A DNA stretch of 12,085 nucleotides from Amoeboaphelidium protococcarum X5 (lineage: Eukaryota > Fungi > Aphelidiomycota). The stretch lies in assembly GCA_023515725.1 (NCBI GenBank), contig JALDTO010000081.1:1-12085 (forward strand). Direction: 5' to 3'. The notes below the pieces were generated by a model, which was given only the letters and a program-made list of their open reading frames with translations, searched no databases and had not been told where the DNA came from. Each line of letters begins with the position of its first letter. Position 1 is the first letter of the stretch. Positions 1-12,085 of this stretch are shown here, in pieces. A program made the translations under genes and the position numbers.

Positions 1-1
1 G

Positions 2-805
2 CATCACAAGCGCGATTTGAACACGGTAACTATTAAGTCCAGGACACTGGTATTTAGGGGCTGGGATCTACTGCTTCTGTCAGTCTATTACGTCTATGAA
101 CAATTATAGGCACACCACCCTGAGTTTATCAGTGTGGATAGGGTGGGAAGGCAGACGTTTGTAACGTTTGCGACTCATCAAGATGCAGCAAACGTGATGC
201 GGCAGCATTAGTGGCAAATGCTGTTCCACGAGCGAGTCACGGCACACTATGCTTTCAATTCCGTCCATATAGACATTAATCAGCAAGCTCGATTCACTGG
301 CCACACCAACGTAAATGTCATGGCTCTAACATATCATACAATGAAAAAAATCTCATCGGAAATTGGAAGCGATTACCTCCGAAGATATTGGAGAGATATC
401 CACCGTCGCTTGAGCCGTCAGTAATACACATTTGGCCAGTAATACGGCGGTGTCTGGTTAGGCGGTCTCGTTGTAGAAGATCCCTCTCCTACTACTGGTC
501 GTGCGCACAGTCCGCGCTTTGTCCGATTTGCCGTGGACAGAGATATGCGCCAGAGAGTAGAAGTTCTCAGGCAATAGCTACCAACTTTCCACAGGGATGA
601 GGTGGCCACTCTAGCCCTCCCTTGGCTATAGGAGTTGGACAGCTAGAGACAGCTTCCGGTCTCCGAGTTGAGAGACTTCCTGAGAGATTATGAGAGGTAG
701 TTGGTTGCGCTATATGGAGGATGCGCAATATACGAAATTTACCACAGAACTTTAAAAATGTGGCTGAGAAGAAGGTTTGAATAATATATGAATAGAAATA
801 GATGA
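2..805 (+). CDS. 5'-partial intronless gene (>=267 aa) with an RRM-like domain followed by an unrecognised, probably helical region
   Basis: Frame 2 has no TGA from the window start to TGA 803-805 when TAA/TAG are read as Gln. Segment about 38-255, SRTLVFRGWD...EFISVDRVGRQTFVTFATHQDAANVMRQHQWQMLFHERVTAHYA, fits the RRM pattern (RNP2-like TLVF, RNP1-like TFVTF, DA helix, terminal V.AHYA strand). The ORF is seen directly; the domain call is by eye. Confidence 0.7.
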
Positions 806-1142
806 ATTTGTTTTATTGAAATAATAATTTCATCATATCATTGTCCCCAGTGGCGTAAGTAGTTTTCAATTCCAAGTACGCACACCACGGTAAAAAAGTT
901 TATCCCAACAATAATCTAGAAACAGGTCGGAAATTTGCTAGTAAAAGTGTCTAATCTAAAATTTTTGGGTACGCTGCGCGTATCCGTGCGAAGCGCTAGA
1001 TACACCACTGATTGTCCCAGTTTGATTTGATAGTTGAAACAACGGCCAGGCTTGCAGCTTTCAGTATTAAATAAGCGTTTAGCGGGAATAGATATCACGT
1101 AAATTTTAAATGAGTAAGAACGCATTTCATTTCTACAGTATG

Positions 1143-2207
1143 TCAATCAAGAACAAGAATTTAATCTTCAAAGTCATCAGCATCGTCTGGTTTTACATCA
1201 ACCAAGGCCTTCCAGATTAAGCGGCCGCGCGAAGAGGTCCTCAATTTAATCTAGACTAGAGACTCAATGAGATTGCTTAGAAATTAAACCACTGGCTAGA
1301 ATCTCGTGGATAATTCAGGCACGTCCGCTTACTTGCAGGTACGCTTAAACTGATCCATGCTCCAGAAGTTGCTCAGTTATTTGAACCGAGCCTTATCCAG
1401 AATACGCATGAACTAAACCAGAAATTCAGCTAGCTCCTTACCCTCGACAAAGCTTACTTTCTGATTTAGCACAGCAGCATCTACTTCCCAGTCGAAATAG
1501 GCGAGGTAGTCGAAACACAGGCTCGCATCAGAGAGGACGTCTAGATTCTCAGAAAATCCGGCCGCAGAGTTCCAAATCAGCACGGTCTTGTTGTTGGCGC
1601 CTTTAGCTTTTCTGGCCGCATCCTTGACGCTTTTCCATTCAGCCAAATTTCTAACATCCTGCGACAGTTTCTTCTTATAGAAAAAAGCCTTGTTATCAGG
1701 GGAAGCAGTAGTCTACAAACCTATCTCTAAGAGCTTGTCCAGCACTTTAAAGTGCTGTAGCTTAGCTTGCTCTTCAGAAGACGCGCTGCAAGGGGAAACT
1801 CTTGAGACAGCGAAGTAGCTATTGTACTTCAGATACTGCTTTTCAATTCCATAGAGTTTAATATCATTGCTGAGACTAAAGCTCTGTGCCCGAGCAGTTG
1901 ATCCGGAGGAGGAGGACGCGAGGAGACTCTTAGCGCGTAATAAGAAGTATTTGCATCCTTGGAAAGTTACAAATAATTTATCATCAGCTTTCTTGGTCTA
2001 TTCCTTCAGCACCTCCGTGATGATATCTTCTAACTAGGATATTGAGCAATATTACTCGTCACCTTTTTTCTCCTTAACCAGTGCCAAGATCTTGTTGCGG
2101 AAATATATAGCCGATAGACCGCTGAAACAATCCACCACTTCATACCCATTTAAAAACTGTTTAGTCAACGCTTTGACATTGTTGTATTCAGCTCGAGAGC
2201 GTTTCAT
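1143..2207 (-). CDS. Intronless 354-aa hypothetical protein; central region resembles a divergent serine recombinase/resolvase catalytic domain
   Basis: ATG 2207 to TGA 1143-1145, 355 codons with no internal TGA; includes track ORF 1413..1646. Motif FAVSRVSP (R136, S138 at 1794-1802), then VLIWNSAAGFSENLD about 75 aa later. The ORF is confident; the function is tentative. Confidence 0.75.
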
Positions 2208-2772
2208 ATTGTTTATAATGAGATTAGAGTTTACGGCGAAATGATGGATTATTTAGAAATACTGTAAGTAAAGACTGAACAGGAATGATCTTTTGACAAT
2301 GGGAAGAGATCATCGCGTATGAGTGACGCGCGATTTATAAATAGACAATTCAGATTAAGACCCAATCCCATCTAATCCTCATTAAAGTTCAGGAGGCGCC
2401 CAATTACTCGTGATATTTAATACCATTACATTTTCAGAATAGAAGTTTTCAAATTTGTTCACTTCATACTCTTCAGTAGTTGTGTATAAGTCATATCTTT
2501 ATGCCACGCCACAACGCCTGACAAGAACTCCTGACTTCAATACTTTGTGCTGAGTTATATAGTAGATAGAATGAAGAATATATTGATTGTCTGTAAAAAT
2601 TACAGGTCATTTAGATAGTGTATCCTATGATTGCCAGGATTGGAGTTTTGCGCTGATTGTTCAAGTGAAAGTCTTTGGGGAGTTAAGCCAAAAGTCCTGA
2701 AAGATATTCATGTCATCAAACGCAAAATCTTAAGCAGAAGAACTGCAACTATTTAGTATATTTACCTTTCAT

Positions 2773-3336
2773 TCAATCGACTTCATGTAAAAAGAGTACC
2801 CAAGGATAATGACTCAGGCGCAGCAAATTTCTGCGTGGTATCTCATGCAATCTGTAAATCCATTTGTCTCTCCTGCGAATAAAGTCTTTAACTGCCGCAT
2901 TTTCCGCCTAGGCCATACTATCACCTTACCCACGGAATGGCCCTATGCGTCGGCCGTATATTAATACACGCAATAAGAATTTGCACGGGGGCCTTTGCTA
3001 GACCGTAAACTGCTCAGACTCAACTTGCATCTCATCTTGCAAGTGGAGTCTTGCAAACATTGGAGTTAAGTCCGCAAAGGTTAGCCGGCCAAACCGTATC
3101 AGGCGCCAGTAAAACCACTCTGGGCTCTTGTCCCAGATTTCCCGATACAGCAAATTTTCGCACTCGCGGAAATCTACATTCCTCACTGTTATATCCGGCT
3201 GCCTTTCCAACTAGAATTGCCCTATGAATCCCGTGGCGGATGCGTTAAAACGTATTGTCGCGTAACAATCCATATCAACCGCACGATTGATCATCTTCAC
3301 GACCTCGGACTTGATATATCTGTTAGTTTCAGCCAT
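2773..3336 (-). CDS. Intronless 187-aa protein with a double-stranded RNA-binding domain (dsRBD)-like fold, possibly two in tandem
   Basis: ATG 3336 (AAAATG context) to TGA 2773-2775, 188 codons; includes track ORF 2998..3210. Residues about 88-154, DLTPMFARLHLQDEMQVESEQFTVQQRPPCKFLLRVLIYGRRIGPFRGQGDSMAQAENAAVKDFIRR, match the alpha-beta-beta-beta-alpha dsRBD signature (F.x.V.I.G ... G.G.S..AE.AA). Confidence 0.7.
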
Positions 3337-3535
3337 TTTAGTTTGTTAGTTTGTAAACGATCAGTGATGCAAAGGTCATCACAGCTATGACTCGCATCAT
3401 CGCTGTCATTTTTGACATCCTCTCCTAAAGAACCTGTAGGTTTCTCAAAGAAGCCATCTGAAAGTGTCGATCAACTTATGTGAATAGTTACCATTTAATA
3501 GTCTTGACACCAACCTATTCCTATTCCTATCCTAA

Positions 3536-3558
3536 GGGGGTGACCAGAAATTACGTAA
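3536..3558 (+). repeat. Left terminal inverted repeat
   Basis: Pairs with 4442-4464 at 21/23 positions. Confidence 0.9.
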
Positions 3559-3719
3559 TTATCTCGAGGGGAGAGGGGTCTAGAATTCCTGAGAAATAGC
3601 GTTACGTGAGATTTTTGTTTCAAGTATGAAACGCGTCTATTGTATCTTTGGATTACCAAGGCGAGTCCGTTTTGCGCTAATCGCCCTCTATCTTTACATT
3701 TTCAGTTTCAAGTCATAGA

Positions 3720-4185
3720 ATGACAATTTAAACATATCTGAAAGCACCTGGAAAGGTGTAAATAATCATCTATGAGAAGCCGACATGTAATTATCATCAT
3801 GCTCAAGATTTCGTTCAGTGCTTAGAATTTTATAATGGTTTTATTCCATCACCTACTCTAATGGCGAAGAAGCATTTTGATTCCATCGTCTAAAACTCTT
3901 CTCTCTTCCAAGTCTAGCTGGCGTCAGGCTGACATATGTATTCCTTCACTCAAAAGTACCTATGAAGAATACTGCTGCCAGAATCCAGGATGTTGCAAAT
4001 ACTACCCTGTAAAGAAGGCTCTGTAGATGAATAGGAAGATTTGTATATTTGGGAAACGGTCAAGAAAGAAGCATCCAATTGCGCGTTCATACGATGATGA
4101 TACATTATAGGACAACTACAATGGCGTAAACGGAAGGTTGGCGGCTTAAGTGGTCCTCGTCAGAAATGGCTACGAGTCTGAGTGA
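3720..4185 (+). pseudogene. Decayed, probably frameshifted coding remnant inside the TIR element (Cys-rich, Zn-finger-like tail)
   Basis: Frame from ATG 3720 (…HAQDFVQCLEFYNGFIPSPTLMAKKHFDS…) stops at TGA 3930-3932. An overlapping +1 frame continues DICIPSLKSTYEEYCCQNPGCCKYYPVKKALQMNRKIC to TGA 4183-4185. No DDE core is visible. Confidence 0.4.
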
Positions 4186-4441
4186 TTGTGATTATATGAG
4201 ACGGCTGTTGGTAATCGAAGATTAGTGTTTAGTGAGCTTTGACGCGTTACACTAGGCAAATGGTAAGCAAAGGCCGAGTGAATGGTAGTTTGTTAATATA
4301 TCCTAATTTTCGACACCGCATTTACATCATTCGATTCAGATTTACGAGATCTATTTAAAAATGCAATAATATTCGTACATATATATCTTGAGCCGAGGTT
4401 GGCACTTAAGGGAGGGGGGTCAATTTTCCTGATTTTCTGCG

Positions 4442-4464
4442 TTAAGTAATTTCTGGTCAGCCCC
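4442..4464 (-). repeat. Right terminal inverted repeat
   Basis: Pairs with 3536-3558 at 21/23 positions; followed by the TAA TSD. Confidence 0.9.
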
Positions 4465-4937
4465 TAAGCACTGGCACATACATTCACCTCTTTTCAGGTT
4501 TAAGCTGGGTAAAACGGATATTGAGGCAATAGTGACATTGATTTGCCATCCAAAAATTATTTAATCAGGGCAGGGTATGAATCTCATCTGTTAAAGTTAC
4601 CAGCCTTATTTTGCACTGGCAGGGAAGAATGCAAAGATATCACTATCTCTCAAGCGTCGCATGTACCCTCTCTCCGTTAACCTCTCTCCGTGAACATGGT
4701 AAGGCATGGCAGGGTAAGTTTTAAAGATGATAATCCATTTATAATTATTTTAAACCAAAATACCGCGTAAGATTCTGAGTTCATAATACATCAATATTAC
4801 TATAATAAAATTTCATAGTGTTTAATAGAAAAGTGACAATAATTTTCCACGTCAAATGTTTGCAGTACAGTAGAGTACATTCCAAAGCGCATCAGTCGCC
4901 TGATTGTCTCTTGACCCTTAACGATAAAACTTTCAAA

Positions 4938-5516
4938 ATGAAGAGGAATAAAGTTTAGTCATCATGTTATAAATCTTATCTGTCAATGATATAAGCTTTT
5001 GATATTTAGAATTAATCTATGACTATGGAATAGTTTAAAAAGTTGTGTGACAGTTTTTATAAGAAGAATCACCTTGCAAAGTCGTTGCCACGGTTTAAGA
5101 ACTGCATGAAGTACTTCTATAATGCATTTCACGACGGGAATTAATTTAAGCTTGGAACTGCATTAGAGAATGAGTTGGGAGTATATGCTGAATAAACTAT
5201 AAGAGCTGGCACAGTACTGAAAGGCCTGATTGGTTTTAGGAATGCGATGGCTGCAGACAAAACTTCAGAAGTTGGCAAGAAGAATCAACGCAATTTTTAT
5301 GTGAATATGGTGGGTGTCAATGATGTATTTGACGGACCAACGTATTTTCTCAACCATAGTTGCCGTCCTAATCTGATATGCTCTTCAATGCCGGGAAAAG
5401 AGTTCAGATTCAAGGCTACACGTAATATTGCTGTCGGAGAAGAACTTACTATTACCTATAGTAAACAATACTTTTTAGGCAACAATTTGAAATGTAAATG
5501 TGAACACTGTCGTTGA
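4938..5516 (+). CDS. Minimal (192 aa) intronless SET-domain lysine methyltransferase, Set9/Suv4-20 (KMT5B/C)-like
   Basis: ATG 4938 (AAAATG) in frame with track ORF 5247..5516 through seven TAA/TAG codons; ends TGA 5514-5516. Motifs LGVYAEQTI.AG, DGPTYFLNHSCRPN, ATRNIAVGEELTITY and post-SET YFLGNNLKCKCEHC parallel Suv4-20 GPAAFINHDCRPN ... FFGENNEFCECYTC. Start could alternatively be 4986. Confidence 0.88.
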
Positions 5517-5561
5517 ATAAATTAAAATAGTATAACACAATCTCCAAGCGTCCGACTTGTT

Positions 5562-5655
5562 ACACGCTTCCGCGTGTTTGACGAAAATCGTTCCGCTCGT
5601 TATTCCGCTCGCGCGCTCGCTCTTTTCCGCCTTGGCATCCAACGGCTGCCGCCGT
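5562..5655. repeat. GC-rich block of short direct repeats and hairpins
   Basis: TTCCGC at 5568, 5591, 5603, 5625 (two extend to TTCCGCTCG). Perfect hairpins ACACGC-TTCC-GCGTGT (5562-5577) and ACGGC-TGCC-GCCGT (5642-5655). Confidence 0.6.
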
Positions 5656-5943
5656 AATATAGTAACAGGGGTCATTGTCGTGCACAAAATTGTTCAATAA
5701 CGCGGGTAGTTTTAAATTTATGCAGTAGAACGGCCTTCAGCATGGCGGAGTGCCTACTTTATGTTAAGAATAGTATAAGAGAGTGAAGTGAATATGAGAT
5801 ATAACAAGTATATTTACAGTTGTTTCAACTCTTATATGATAAAGAGAGAGAGTGAGTGACTGAAACGCGTCAACACGGTTTCAGCTCCACACTTTAAACT
5901 GCGAATAATCTTATCTTGCTTATCATGACAATCATAGTGCCAA

Positions 5944-6945
5944 TCATAATGCAATAATGATCGATATAAGCATTAGCAGCCTGTCTTATTGCCAGCCGTT
6001 GTTCAATTGGGCAATTTTCAGCTCGCGACTATCGTACAAAGAAGATGACCATTATTGTTTATGTACGTTAATTAGCTTAAATAAATTTGGCAGCTTTTAA
6101 AAAATCAAATTTATTGTCCTCGATATGACTTCTGTAGTGATAGTAACTTTCCGAGATTTTTAGATGCTGGCATCGAATTACCAGGTGCCAGCGTACCAGG
6201 TGAAACTCTAAATCAATATTCGATATTAGGGCCGATAGTGAATTGTCAAATCTAATTCTGAAGCCAATTACTTTGGTGCTGATAGATTATCGCTTGAGAC
6301 TGATCGTTTACGAATCCGCGAATACTTCGAATCAAAAAATGAGAATGGTGGTGTTATTAGCTAGTGTACGATGTTTATCAAACTTTACCTGATCTATGAA
6401 AGCTGCAGCGCCTACTCTATAGACTCTTCCAAAAGTGAGTTTTCTAATATGCTCCGCCAATTGTATCTGACGTATACCACGAATCTATGCATGTCCTGTT
6501 AACTGCCGTGATCTAACGGCTGTCAATAACAATAAAGTGTATAATAAACGCGCCATCAAATCATACTCGAATCCAATATGCTTATATTTACGAGTCAAAA
6601 GTCATTAAGAAAGTAAAGGCAGAATAATCTGCGCTCAAACAGTATTCGAGTTGTAAAGTTAAAGGTACTGCGCCCTGTTGAACACAGATCCTACAATGCT
6701 AATTACCTAAAGACGCATCTATGAATATGAATACTTAGTGTTGTTAATACAACAAAAGACAAATCATCCATATCGACCCTGGTCGTCAGGCATTGAGCTG
6801 CACCATACTGTTGTAGTCTCGCCTAGCGACCCCGGTCGTTAAGCATTAACTCACACTATTAAAACAGTGCAAGGCGTGCTCTATTTATAGTAACAAATTG
6901 GATTTTTCTTTTTGTACAGCCCTTACTGGTATTTCGCGTTGCCAT
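5944..6945 (-). CDS. Hypothetical protein, tentative 3-exon model (6945-6855, 6718-6567, 6519-5944; 272 aa)
   Basis: A 192-codon minus frame 6519-5944 has no internal TGA and ends TGA 5944-5946. Candidate introns GTGAGT..TAG (6854-6719) and GTATGA..CAG (6566-6520) join the exons in frame. No family recognised; the 5' exons are uncertain. Confidence 0.45.
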
Positions 6946-7106
6946 GGAAATGAAACTTGAAGCGAAATCTGAAATACCAGTTCGGGAATAGTAGTGTAAT
7001 AATATTAATTGTTGCGAGAAAAGAAAAAGCTTATAAATAGAAATAACTAAAGTAAAAAAAACCACTATGGTAGACTAAACATGTTAATTCCAACATTTAT
7101 AGTAAC

Positions 7107-7598
7107 TCATTAGGATGATGATGATCGCTTAGACTTAGACGCTAGGTACGCAATGAAGAATATGACCATCACAAATATAATCATGTAGAGCGTGTACTTG
7201 GAGTTTTGTGTCTACATAAGCCTTGAGAGACGATTCATAGTGTTCCCCAACACTCCTCTAGTGCGGTCAAAATCTGTCGACATTCCACCCAAGAATCGAT
7301 TCTAATCCTGTACTTCATCTGATATTTTAATAGTCACAGCTTTAAGTGCGTTAACTTTGTTCTCCAATAGAGAGATCTCTGCATCATTCTATCGTTCTTA
7401 TTCATACCTAGCATCAAAATTATTATTATTATTACTATTACTACCGGAACTTAGTGTACTATCACCTCTATTCACCAATTTACTATTTGCAGCTGGATAC
7501 ATAGTTCTACATACAATTGTACCTTATAATAAAATTATGTTGTGAAATTATCATGATTTAATATTTAATATATTTTACCTGTTGTATTTTCCAGACAT
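7107..7598 (-). CDS. BET1: Bet1-type Qc-SNARE (ER-Golgi), 139 aa, exons 7598-7579 and 7506-7107
   Basis: EQERQNDAEISLLENKVNALKAVTIKISDEVQDQNRFLGGMSTDFDRTRGVLGNTMNRL followed by a C-terminal TM helix TLYMIIFVMVIFFIAYLA; ends TGA 7107-7109. The Bet1/Gs15 subfamily pattern is clear. An alternative start is ATG 7502. Confidence 0.9.
7507..7578 (-). other. Probable 72-nt spliceosomal intron of BET1
   Basis: AG|GTAAAA donor at 7578, AT-rich body, TAG acceptor ending at 7507; splicing gives in-frame MSGKYNR-TMYP. Confidence 0.7.
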
Positions 7599-7751
7599 TA
7601 CTCTACAGTAGTTAGCTGATGGACGAAATTACAATTGTCTATCGATAAAACAAAAGTTGGACAAGAATGAAAAGTTTTAACATTAGACGCGTTCGTATCA
7701 CAGCAAATGGTTGTACGATGAAGAAAGTTGTTAAATAACGCTGAAATAAGT

Positions 7752-9428
7752 TCAATCTATTGGCGACCATCGAGCGACATCTTCGTGTGGAATGAGGAGA
7801 TAATTTCTATGAGGTTGAGATGGCGGCGATGGAGACATTTAGTTAGATGATTGATCAACAGTCGGATTTTGAACCACTGGCAGCAAATCTTCCAATGTCA
7901 ACTCTTCCTCATTAATTTTGTCTTCATTCAACTACTACTACTACTACTACTGTTATTACTATATGGTAGATATCCTTAATGAGTTATCAGCACTCTTGGT
8001 ACCAAATCTCTTTGAAGATCTGGCATCAGCATTACCAGCTCGCAGTATAAATGTTCTCTCATTCATGTTGACTTTCTCTGATTTTGTGGATTCCTTCAGT
8101 ACATTCTTCGCTGATATACTATTATTACTACCAATATGAATACTTAGATCCGACAGATTTTACCTGAATTAATCATCAGAACTCAGCTTCAATTTAATTT
8201 GTCCACAAGGATCTTCACTAGCTTCATTTGAGAGAGAATACCACCCATCTATGCACTGCATTCCATAAGAAAGTGAAGAGTGATCAACTTTACATGAAGC
8301 TATCAAGTCCTTTCTATCATTCAACAACTACACCTCAATATGGCCTTTCATTGTCCCATCTAGGATGCTAATCTTCCAATAAATGCTATTAAGATTAGAA
8401 CATTAAACTTCCTTTTAGTACAAAGTTCTTCCAGATATAATTTAAACAAATACTATAGGACACGTAATGTATATATTGGAAATCTTCTCCACCATAAGAA
8501 ACATCAATCTTTAAGGCTACTTTGAAGTTGATAATTGCGAGTGTTAACTCTACTCATTCTAGTCAACATGCAAATCTTTATTCAAATTCGGTGAATGATT
8601 TCCGGCCCTATCATTAACTTAATCTACGTTGAAAGAGCGCTATACATTAGTGCCAGATGATTTAGTAGCAGATAAAGCACCAGAGAACATTACAGTTGAT
8701 AACAGAGAATCTTAAATCTACGCGTGAAGACTCTATGCTCGCTACATGAGCAACTGCAATTTACTTTAATCGATAACGTTTTACTAAGCTCTATAACTAC
8801 TCTTAATATCAGGAGATACGTTCTCTTTATCCTACCTGATTTAAGAGGTGTTAAAATTCCTTAATGGACTTTTAGACTTTGGTCGATGAATAACATGGTC
8901 AGTTGGCGGCACTTTGACTTCAACAGGTCGTTGTAAATCGTCACCAACTTTCAAAGGCGTCAGACTCAAACCAAGCGTAATTTAACCAATAGACTTCTTA
9001 TTTAGATTAAGTACATGCAGTCCGATCTCAACCTCTTCACCAAGCTTATCAAGCACCTACTGCATTAGAGTTGAAGGTATGAAACAATGACCAATTTGTT
9101 AATTAGGATTACTGCCCAATGAACAGAATACACTGATATTCAACTACTTCATATCGCCAATATATTATTAAAACTAGCCTAAAGCACTCAAAATGTCAAA
9201 TTCAACTATATCTGGATAGCCTTCTACCTCCTGTGATGTACGCCCATCACTCATATGTCTCTATAAATTCAAGAAGTGAAACTAATCCGATCCCCAGAAT
9301 TTAAATTTGGCATACATAGATTGACCATGAATTTACTTTTAACTGCTTGCATTTAACTGTAATTTAATGGCTCTAATGCACAGTTGGAACTACTTTTATC
9401 CCTCCACTCTAGGCGGCAGAGTTTCCAT
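7752..9428 (-). CDS. C2CD3: Compact C2CD3-like centriole distal-end protein (558 aa, intronless; N-terminal C2CD3-type C2 domain plus one later C2 domain)
   Basis: ATG 9428 to TGA 7752-7754, 559 codons; entirely missing from the standard-code track. TLPPRVEGQ, KFKFWGSD, QFQQYIGDM and KKSIGQITLGLSLTPL resemble, from memory, animal C2CD3 SLPPLVEGQ, RVRWWGE, QFTSYLTDM and KKLGELQVSLALEPL. SYGMQCIDGWYSL...PCGQIKL resembles its last C2 domain. Confidence 0.8.
7932..7961 (-). repeat. Poly-Gln (Q10) tract written TAG TAA TAA CAG (TAG)6
   Basis: In frame within the C2CD3-like ORF; mixes a canonical CAG with reassigned TAR codons. Confidence 0.9.
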
Positions 9429-9626
9429 GACATATACTCTTTATTGCGTTAGATACTCTGCAGTCGAGCAGATCCCACTCTAAAACAGAATAGAACGCGC
9501 TTTCGCTGAAACAGAGAATTCAGTAGACTGTGAAGAATGCATAAGGGAAAGATTACGAAAATACAGTACCAAACAAATAACGCGAGCAATGAATGACCAA
9601 TAAATTCTATTTTTATTGAGTACGAA

Positions 9627-10499
9627 TCATGAACCAACGTTGGCGTTGAGGTATTAAATGAACACCTCGCCAATACCAGAGTGGGCTCCAACCATGCGAT
9701 TGAGAGTCAGAAATTGTCTTCGCAGTCGTTTCAGTTCTTGCGGTCTCACATCGGTTGGAGAGTTGATTTGGGTGAACTAAAGAGGCGTCGCGTAGCTGAG
9801 AACGGTGCATCCGCCACTCTGAATATCCATCCCTTCGGACGCACACTTGAGCACAGCCGCTACAATCTCTGAGGTGATCTAGTCAATGTCAGTGATATTT
9901 TACACAGACGGCGACACTGTCTTCCGAGTGGCTAATGTTGGTCTCAGCTTAACATCACTCTGCAAATATGAAATAATTTGATCAATTTGCGAATCAATCT
10001 CAGATTCACTATTACCATCAGAAACGTTATTTGTGGTGAATATATTAAAAAGTGGCGAATCCCACCGATTAGTAGATATAGGCTCTTCATAACGCATCAT
10101 CAACGCAGATAGTACGGCATCAGAGTATTTCGCAGCTGTACCATGCTGCATATTTCTATCACGTATGTCATCATCACTAGCATTAACGTACACCACACAG
10201 TATTAAGTCGGTACAGCACGAGCGACACAATATAATTAATATCTACAACTCTTTATATTGTTCATAGCATCCATAATTACTATAGAGTCTTTGCTAATGA
10301 ACTTTTCCACTTGCGATAGAATGGATCCGCGAATTTTCTTCTCCTCGTAGTCAGTCGAGTATGCCTAGTCATGTTCTCCATCAGCGAGCCCATCATTAAT
10401 CAACTGGACACTCTTACCACCGGGTATTTTATCAATCAATTTGTTGGCGATTGTAGTCTTACCGCTCAATGGCTTACCAGTCAGCACTATCAATGGCAT
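9627..10499 (-). CDS. KTI12: Kti12, Elongator-associated P-loop (PSTK-like) protein, 290 aa
   Basis: MPLIVLTGKPLSGKTT P-loop, EEKKIRG, IVIMDAMNNIKSCRYQLYCVAR, MRYEEP..NRWDSPLF, ELKRLRRQFL, FIQYLN. ATG 10499 to TGA 9627-9629, 291 codons; includes track ORF 9900..10196. Confidence 0.96.
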
Positions 10500-10868
10500 A
10501 CTTGTAATATATTTATTTAACGTGATAATTAATGCTCACACGCTATCTGCTATATGAGGAGCGCTGTGTGGTGATCTAAAAATGGAAACGCGCCGATCTG
10601 ATTGACGCGTCTCTGATTGGCCAAGAGGCAATTTTTAATCACTTCCTGTCCAGTTGCACAATCGATCGTGGCTGTTATATCAACGCCCTTTTTATCCTCT
10701 AATAATTCTATATCTTTCTTCTTGTTGGTTATAATATTTATTCACCTACTGCTCATATAATAAATTCCTCTCTGTTTATCCTTGTTATTGCGCATCACTG
10801 TTTTGTAGTAGACTGATTGACATACATATTTAAAGCTCGAATTAATTACAAGATAATAGTAGACACTG
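10500..10868. promoter_or_regulatory. Divergent intergenic/promoter region between KTI12 and SKT5 with MCB-like and CCAAT motifs
   Basis: AAACGCGCC 10586-10594, ACGCGT 10605-10610, CTGATTG twice (10598, 10613; the second is a reverse CCAAT). The motifs are seen; their function is inferred. Confidence 0.45.
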
Positions 10869-12085
10869 ATGTATTCATAATAATAACAATAGTAATCTCA
10901 AGATTAAATTTACATGCAGTCATCGCAGTAGTAATAGTAGCGGTAATAATAACAATTGTAATAAGGTGCACAGTAATTATAGTCTCCTCAATAGTAGAAA
11001 ATGTATTAGCCGCAACCGCTGCAGCAGCAGTAGTAGTAGGTGTTGTATAGAAAAGCTGCAAGTGCTGCCTCTGCCACGCCTCAGACCTCGAGATCAACCA
11101 CGGCTACTTCGCTGAGCAGTTACAGCAATCAGTCGGCAGCTAGTGCTCATACTGGATCTGAACACTCTCGTCAGATGACTAATGGCAATGGAAGTTTAAA
11201 TGGCGGTGGTGTCTCTGTTGCAAGCGGAAATCAGTACATTGACGCGGTATCCTCGGGCGATGGACCGCAAAGAGCTGTAATGTATAGTCAGAATAACAAT
11301 CGCTCTAACGGTGCACTATCAGCCTCGCTTATATCCAACTCTTATGGACGACATTAGCCTGGAGATTTGGCGTCACTGGTTTCCTATGAGCAGACTTTGT
11401 AAATGTACAGAGAGAATGCCAAGAAGAGTCAAGACGTACAAACTCAACTCGACTTTGCCAAGTATCTTATCCAAATTTCCGAGTCTATTCAGGTGATGCC
11501 AGGTGACAAGTTAATGTCAAAGAAGCGAGACTCTCTGATGCAAGAAGGTATCAAGTGGATCAAGAAGCTGGCGAATAACGGACTGGGTCTTGGTAAACCA
11601 GCTTTTGCTGAGGCTCAATTCTTCCTAGCCGAGTGTTATGGCAATGGAATCTTTGGGCTTCCCATTGATCACGACAAGGCCTTCTCTATGTACGTGCAAG
11701 CTTCCAAGTAGAACCATGCCGCGTCCACCTATCGTGCCGGAGTGTGTTACGAGATCGGTGCCGGTTGCAGAAAAGATGCTGCTCGTGCTGTATAGTTTTA
11801 TAGGAAAGCTGCTGCATTGGGTGATATTAATGCCATGTATAAACTTGCGGTGATCCTGCTGAATGGTATGATGAGTGTGTAGAAGAATGAGCGTGAAGGT
11901 GTCACTTGGCTTAAACGTGCTGCCCAAGCTGCAGATGAGAATCATCCCGAAGCTTTACATGAACTGGCGTCTGTGTATGAGAAGGGAGGTGTACCGTCCA
12001 TCATATCGGATGAGAGTTATTCGCGCGAGTTGTATACAAAGGCAGCGTAGTTGGGTTATGCACCATCGCAGTTCAAGCTTGGCTA
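10869..12085 (+). CDS. SKT5: 3'-partial chitin synthase activator Chs4/Skt5 family protein (Sel1-like repeats) with Gln-rich N-terminus
   Basis: One frame from ATG 10869 joins track ORFs 11040..11357 and 11403..11711 and runs off the window. MYRENAKKSQD..TQLDFAKYLI, EAQFFLAECYGNG, QASKQNHAASTYRAGVCYEIGAG, QFYRKAAALGD..AMYKL, WLKRAA..ADE.HPEALHELA, KAAQLGYAPSQFKLG. Confidence 0.9.

Follow-up and report, generated by a model that had tools for sequence, protein, structure and literature searches.

A likely transposon family with a predicted serine-recombinase fold among mobile DNA of the aphelid Amoeboaphelidium protococcarum

The left part of a 12,085-nucleotide stretch of DNA from Amoeboaphelidium protococcarum X5, an alga-parasitizing relative of fungi (contig JALDTO010000081.1 of assembly GCA_023515725.1, positions 1 to 12,085; hereafter the window) carries four short open reading frames (ORFs), namely ORF1, ORF2, ORF3 and a SET-domain ORF, and raises the question of whether these genes form one mobile element, a piece of a virus or a set of unrelated arrivals. 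The initial annotation, made from the letters of the window, had described them as an island of RRM, recombinase-like, double-stranded RNA-binding domain (dsRBD) and minimal SET methyltransferase genes belonging to a large mobile element or an endogenous virus. Our analysis instead favors a nest of independent mobile pieces in one haplotype, whose core, ORF1 plus ORF2, is likely a DNA transposon with a predicted IS607-like serine transposase; we assign this reading a probability of roughly 0.55.

The window was read with genetic code table 6, in which TAA and TAG encode glutamine. As initially annotated, the four ORFs are uninterrupted under this code and stand in a row without introns. All have near-identical annotated counterparts, which keep this order along a single 2,170,272-nt contig (P0027 for ORF1, then MP228_006739, _006740 and _006741, with KTI12 as _006744), and the 287-residue P0027 is the full-length version of ORF1, whose start lies 20 codons left of the window. 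Under table 1, only one 89-residue piece, from the SET ORF, is left; nevertheless, the genes have not been missed, as all four counterparts are annotated, merely as hypothetical, unnamed genes of this species. Named homologues of the window proteins (96–99% identity) likewise all come from A. protococcarum. The numbers of glutamine-encoding TAA/TAG codons (9 in ORF1, 11 in ORF2, 4 in ORF3 and 7 in the SET ORF) reflect host-like usage. ORF size alone is weak evidence under table 6, with 3.4 ORFs of at least 187 residues per shuffle in 200 shuffles. Copy and linkage data were taken from the locus tags of two annotated assemblies (prefixes MP228 and MIR68) and from contigs of public sequencing runs (designated X1, X6, X7, X9 and X10 here); the contigs show presence, not absence, and their depth serves as a hint beside the tags, not as a copy number.

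We compared a structural model of ORF2 (predicted local distance difference test, pLDDT, 81; predicted template-modeling score, pTM, 0.81; alignment of 25 sequences) with 48,161 chains using VIA-align and considered the 50 best matches. Serine recombinases accounted for 13 of these 50 and included all ten best matches on ORF2 residues 128–270 (Z 5.5–7.1), while the first unrelated protein on this segment, among the matches listed, reached Z 5.2. The TP901-1 integrase headed the catalytic-domain matches (Z 7.1, root-mean-square deviation (rmsd) 3.9, 121 residues aligned). A second fold comparison ranked the gamma-delta resolvase 1zr2 highest (Z 7.1, rmsd 3.5, 120 residues aligned; model residues 129–325 on chain residues 1–124), with four resolvase or recombinase chains at Z 5.8–7.1 and the best unrelated match to the same domain at 4.1. 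Also among the fold matches were 3lhk (Z 5.5) and 6dgb (Z 5.0), both of the IS607 type, and helix E of resolvases and integrases was aligned to ORF2 residues ~304–325. ORF2 residues 1–93 matched winged helices with Z up to 6.7, including RFX5 (Z 6.4, rmsd 3.3 over 77 residues), RFX-DBD (Z 6.0, rmsd 2.5 over 70) and the phage P4 origin-binding domain (Z 5.7).

Since model residue 129 corresponds to gamma-delta residue 1 in this alignment register, R136 and S138 of ORF2 fall on resolvase R8 and S10. Both are well conserved in the ORF2 family (14 of 16 and 15 of 16 covering sequences, respectively), which keeps an RVSP motif around the serine; W212 and G217 are present in 18 of 18 and R323 and R327 in 16 of 16. 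In addition, the predicted succession of an N-terminal winged helix and a catalytic domain gives ORF2 the domain order of IS607 TnpA, in which the winged helix is described as lying N-terminal of the catalytic domain (PMC4058570, PMC6188088). Together, these predictions suggest that ORF2 likely acts like a serine transposase, though it falls outside the superfamily in the strict sense.

Next, we considered how the ORF2 family is distributed. A profile search covering 1.84 billion representative sequences returned 13 matches, and the 12 whose names were looked up were all from A. protococcarum. With cluster members included, the family comprises 23 locus tags (13 MP228 and 10 MIR68) spread across many contigs, with 24–99% identity to ORF2. 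A tree built from 17 of the 25 aligned sequences, the eight shortest or most broken being omitted, resolved several deep subfamilies with long branches. The ORF2 copy in the window is intact, and R136, S138, R323 and R327 are all present in seven of the 25 aligned sequences, most of the others being partial; partial copies were found at every level of divergence. In a contig from run X1, the sequence shared with the window stops at 2510 and is followed, on the opposite strand, by the solo long terminal repeat (LTR)-like repeat that also occurs in the window; this joint is from another copy of the region upstream of ORF2, which either received a separate LTR insertion or terminates at this point.

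The ORF1 search gave six matches among 471 candidates, one being the window's own protein and the rest all from A. protococcarum. At three of seven other loci, an ORF1-family tag directly adjoins an ORF2-family tag (MIR68_004961/2, MIR68_001689/90 and MP228_004616/5; consecutive accessions on contigs of equal size), so that ORF1 plus ORF2 is a repeated unit. Random placement of tags produced three adjacent pairs in one of 200,000 draws, a frequency to be read with the caution that the loci are not fully independent. Since the partner proteins at these loci are 52–83% identical, far below the 94–97% among KTI12 copies, the loci are not simple homeologues. Two further ORF1 tags lie 11 tags from ORF2-family tags (MP228_003598/_003609 and MIR68_002349/_002338); these pairs probably represent a single locus that is orthologous between the assemblies, and they could mark a larger, cargo-filled element. 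The initial annotation had suggested looking for recurrence of the whole gene set. ORF1 and ORF2 do recur side by side, and thus are neither single-copy nor never linked, but linkage of all four genes was not seen elsewhere.

The partner gene itself is less well defined. An RRM has a beta-alpha-beta-beta-alpha-beta fold with RNP1 and RNP2 motifs. The ORF1 model was poor (pLDDT 39.6), with a strand-helix-strand-strand-helix pattern; an RRM profile scored as well on 53 of 1000 shuffles, and a fold search with this model returned helical-bundle proteins, with the ArgR C-domain best and RRMs only at E 0.15–0.44, none of them significant. Matches to TnpB-type Pfam families were found neither in ORF1 and ORF3 nor in the other window ORFs scanned. 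No terminal inverted repeat (TIR) pair belonging to the unit was present within positions 1–6100. IS607 elements have no TIRs, make no target duplication and carry short subterminal direct repeats; a second ORF of the TnpB/Fanzor2 type is usual in this family but dispensable.

Several observations weigh against a mobile serine transposase. Y6, R8, S10, D36, R68 and R71 are reported as crucial in Tn3 resolvase (PMC2794168), and only R8 and S10 of these six are kept in ORF2, the positions past Tyr6 having been mapped by eye: ORF2 has valine at the Tyr6 position, and the DRxxR loop, again as mapped by eye, reads WNxAAGFS(E/D) in the ORF2 family, with arginine in 0 of 18 sequences. A conserved lysine lies near the Asp36 position in the same by-eye mapping. 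All Z-scores of ORF2 are below 8, a range in which a common arrangement alone may explain the likeness. The recombinase assignment of the initial annotation is supported by the predicted fold but not by sequence profiles: ORF2 has no Pfam or NCBIfam match; a profile of 26 resolvases scored it no better than shuffles (40 of 100 and 565 of 1000 were as good); a profile of seven IS607 TnpA proteins did not score it above shuffles either; and Foldseek with the ORF2 model gave no match in PDB or BFVD at E ≤ 0.001. A PDB sequence search with ORF1–ORF3 found nothing significant. Concerning mobility, neither an end nor an empty site of the unit was seen, the left end lying beyond the window, and the island is near-identical in several strains, so that no recent jump is shown for this copy. 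The linked loci may be orthologous or segmental copies, in which case the random-tag test overstates their independence, and no ORF1 tag was found near 17–18 of the 22 other ORF2-family tags (17 if the three adjacent pairs and the two pairs at 11 tags are counted as linked).

Compared with known systems, ORF2 resembles IS607 TnpA, including that of the eukaryotic IS607-like/Fanzor2 elements, in its predicted winged helix ahead of a serine-recombinase domain and its serine at the nucleophile position, and its family resembles IS607 elements in its multicopy, species-specific spread. The predicted catalytic domain finds its best structural matches in resolvases and large serine integrases (gamma-delta, Sin, TP901-1 and Bxb1). 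Unlike TnpA, ORF2 has 354 rather than ~200 residues, matches no IS607 profile and lacks the DRxxR arginines. Its predicted winged helix matches RFX/P4/Fur types, in contrast to the SoxR/MerR-like model in PMC4058570, and its partner gene is convergent and has no TnpB/Fanzor match. The eukaryotic serine recombinases described in PMC3673617, PMC3627910 and PMC2715888 are IS607-like, recognizable by sequence and linked to TnpB/Fanzor2, and eukaryotic IS607 copies are reported in PMC3673617 to be sparse and recently transferred (80 sequences in 14 of 430 genomes). A close parallel is the horizontally acquired IS607-type family of the yeast Saccharomyces kluyveri, which is described as dispersed and species-specific, with altered catalytic motifs in some members, likewise in a genome of the fungal lineage (PMC2715888). 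That family has six members that are 27–31% identical to bacterial proteins (PMC2715888), whereas for the ORF2 family no bacterial relative could be detected, each assembly holds at least 10–13 of its tags, and its partner gene recurs.

We found no published account of aphelid transposons or of the ORF2 family in the literature, although an earlier description in Repbase or in supplements is possible; the family is likely an undescribed transposon family. It is of interest because it has radiated to 24–37% identity within one eukaryote and escapes Pfam while keeping the nucleophile and apparently losing four crucial residues. If the reading is true, serine transposition can establish itself in nuclei and its chemistry can be rebuilt.

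By analogy with IS607, ORF2 would use its winged helix to recognize repeats close to the ends of the element and would become attached to DNA by a phosphoserine at Ser138, and strand exchange would excise and insert the element without target duplication. The conserved Lys178, Lys180, Arg323 and Arg327 might replace the lost Asp36, Arg68 and Arg71. The role of TnpB/Fanzor as second gene would fall to ORF1, an accessory protein that would bind nucleic acids, while the neighboring ORF3 and SET unit would have arrived by separate routes.

The best-surviving alternative, which we nonetheless regard as unlikely, is that ORF2 represents a host family: a serine-recombinase-fold DNA-binding protein that was once acquired horizontally, became domesticated or catalytically dead, and was expanded together with its neighbor by segmental duplication and by hybridization while partly decaying. 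The apparent replacement of four of the six crucial catalytic residues would fit this, as would the intact window copy that is near-identical across strains. Dispersed IS607-type recombinase genes are described in S. kluyveri without proven mobility, as far as PMC2715888 reports, and domestication has been proposed for eukaryotic IS607 copies (PMC3673617). However, the many partial copies at all levels of divergence, the confinement of the family to a single species in the search of 1.84 billion representatives, the conserved RVSP motif and the neighboring mobile debris all suit a transposon better.

A further alternative, slightly weaker again, is one large cargo element, in which the serine-recombinase gene would mobilize the whole block and ORF1, ORF3 and the SET gene would be cargo or anti-silencing accessories. 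This would accord with the ORF1- and ORF2-family tags found 11 apart in both assemblies, which would suit variable cargo, and with read depth: in run X7, the ORF3 zone (2541–3302) has a depth of 69.4, that of one haplotype, versus 135, that of two, at the host gene at 7365. Moreover, none of the other KTI12 copies has an island-family tag at a distance of 200 tags or less, so that the block looks haplotype-specific. SET-carrying DNA transposons (HarbingerS, MuDR) are also known from Phytophthora (PMC12730594). The SET gene here nevertheless appears to be a separate passenger. Its four other tags (89–98% identity) are all at least 114 tags from any ORF1- or ORF2-family tag. X7 contigs spanning 4478–4855 and 4826–5353 have depths of 312 and 328 versus 62–69 for a single haplotype (~5-fold), and X6 concurs (391 versus 49–52); the high-depth X7 contigs diverge from the window sequence left of 4478, where they form a loose end. 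These results suggest that the SET gene lies on a separate, recently amplified unit. An insertion variant at 5623 was also seen in X7 (depth 225). Similarly, no second copy of ORF3 at 80% likeness was present among the X7 contigs, and a terminus within the GC-rich block (5540–5755) was rejected, as an LTR-free haplotype extends 89 nt left of 5755. The mobile element proposed in the initial annotation therefore holds for its parts, namely the recombinase fold and the recurrence of ORF1 plus ORF2, and not for a four-gene island, given the separate SET unit and the single-haplotype depth of ORF3.

The SET ORF carries a Pfam SET domain (E 4.9e-13) with NHSC, ELxxxY and post-SET cysteines. Chlorovirus vSET has a SET-only architecture without post-SET cysteines. 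The minimal, vSET-like methyltransferase initially proposed is thus confirmed as a SET protein, but one closest to SUV4-20/KMT2 and with a post-SET CKCEHC tail: the best solved match of the window's SET protein (P0004) was SUV420H1 (E 1.4e-6), followed by KMT2, and no viral SET was among the 17 and 38 PDB matches listed. Another copy, P0017, ranks KMT2 slightly over SUV420, so that the protein may belong to either subfamily. A metagenome scan with the SET protein gave no match. As in the Phytophthora SET transposons, a short multicopy SET gene lies beside a Harbinger-like TIR element; unlike in those, the gene is outside the TIR pair, and its carrier element and transposase were not identified. 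This multicopy SUV4-20-like unit provides a second lead, toward chromatin enzymes carried by transposons close to the base of the fungi.

ORF3 matches a dsRBD weakly. Its residues 120–152 align in register with 30 bacterial dsRBDs, and 0 of 1000 shuffles reach its 6.8 bits, which lends the initial dsRBD call some substance; on the other hand, the HH probability is only 12%, and the usual basic residues are missing. The basic pair that ordinarily precedes the last helix (KKxAExxAA) of the alpha-beta-beta-beta-alpha dsRBD is Met-Ala in ORF3, making strong dsRNA binding doubtful. The 90% cluster of ORF3 contains two sequences. A second dsRBD in the first half of ORF3 was rejected (17 of 100 shuffles were as good).

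More ambitiously, the locus might represent a new kind of eukaryotic transposon, with a serine transposase whose active site was rebuilt with lysines and helix-E arginines replacing the DRxxR motif, an RNA-binding partner replacing TnpB/Fanzor, many subfamilies and a variable cargo (dsRBD-like, SUV4-20-like) that possibly counters silencing; we consider this unlikely. By far the least probable is a piece of an endogenous DNA virus that encoded a suppressor binding dsRNA and an enzyme like vSET, since its compact intronless genes without cellular homologues and the occurrence of IS607 elements in eukaryotic viruses (PMC6188088) are outweighed by the host-like TAA/TAG usage of all four genes, the post-SET motif and SUV420H1/KMT2 matches of the SET protein, the absence of capsid, polymerase, packaging or other viral hallmark genes from the window, and the lack of relatives in PHROGs, BFVD and IMG/VR, the last scanned with back-translated words from ORF1, the ORF2 alignment, ORF3 and the SET protein, with all scans reaching close relatives only.

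Returning to the nest of independent pieces, we examined its haplotype setting. Positions 47–7218 are almost letter-identical in several runs, and the host genes to the right (7458–10269) differ by ~5%; in the matching contig, KTI12 is 96% identical versus 99% for the island genes. This suggests haplotype recombination near 7.4 kb. No run is registered as RNA. However, X10 skips a 72-nt GT-AG intron at 7507–7578 (minus strand), upstream of the SNARE-like ORF, and X9 shows this junction too, along with a poly-T/adapter end; we therefore infer that X9 and X10, both from one study, are RNA. Contigs of these putative RNA runs match ORF1 (47–542, 0 differences), ORF2 (1126–1560, 0) and ORF3 (2746–3485, 1), and a SET contig has 13 differences from the window. 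Every bin of these runs has some depth, so DNA carry-over is possible.

Table 1. Features in the left part of the window and their reading.
Feature	Position	Strand	Description
ORF1	2..805	+	3' 267 codons of a 287-residue protein; possible RRM/ferredoxin-like domain (~26–205) and helical C-terminal part
ORF2	1143..2207	-	354 residues; predicted winged helix and serine-recombinase fold; likely transposase on the model
ORF2 winged helix, predicted N-terminal domain	1929..2207	-	residues 1–93
ORF2 serine-recombinase catalytic domain, predicted	1386..1823	-	residues 129–274; Arg136 codon 1800–1802, Ser138 codon 1794–1796
ORF3	2773..3336	-	187 residues; single degenerate dsRBD-like segment (residues ~95–152); apparently single-copy
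TIR element, non-autonomous, 929 bp	3536..4464		G-rich ends, TAA either side; contains frameshifted gene remnant
Multicopy unit carrying SET gene	4478..5655		likeness begins at 4478; right limit at least ~5655
SET-domain ORF	4938..5516	+	annotated start 5019, 165 residues; NHSC, ELTITY, post-SET CKCEHC motif; SUV4-20/KMT2-like
GC-/CpG-rich block	5540..5755		short direct repeats; no special hairpin
Solo-LTR-like repeat, 130 bp	5762..5891		TG...CA, high-copy, flanked by 5-bp direct repeats

Two mobile pieces overlooked in the initial annotation accompany these genes (Table 1). The TIR element has a 27-nt inverted repeat (89%), and its G-rich TIRs with a 3-bp TAA/TTA duplication form what we take to be a PIF/Harbinger-type signature; no empty site was seen and no transposase was found for it. 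The gene remnant inside this element (3720–4190, plus strand) includes a cysteine-rich stretch. A divergent copy of it reaches a depth of 176–270 in the putative RNA runs, so that a relative located elsewhere is probably intact and expressed. For the solo-LTR-like repeat, an empty site is provided by a joint 5755–5891 that skips 135 nt in X9 and X7. It is high-copy, with many loose ends at 5762 and 5884–5893, and no internal retroelement was seen. The neighboring GC-rich block, initially taken for a repeat/hairpin block, does have 51% GC and short repeats, but a special hairpin was rejected (z 0.82; 158 of 200 shuffles fold as well).

The host genes right of 7 kb encode a SNARE-like protein, a C2CD3-type C2 protein, KTI12 and a Sel1-repeat protein. 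An Rfam scan of the window gave nothing above threshold and three sub-threshold snoRNA matches, ARAGORN reported nothing, and a metagenome scan with a 20-nt pattern gave three matches of 23–24 nt, judged to be chance. The interval 6042–6716 is unannotated; it holds a 182-codon minus-strand ORF without a Pfam match and is covered by an X10 contig with 37 differences. Finally, short repeats at 890–962, 6903–6990 and 6995–7059 show high depth and loose ends in both the DNA and the putative RNA runs.

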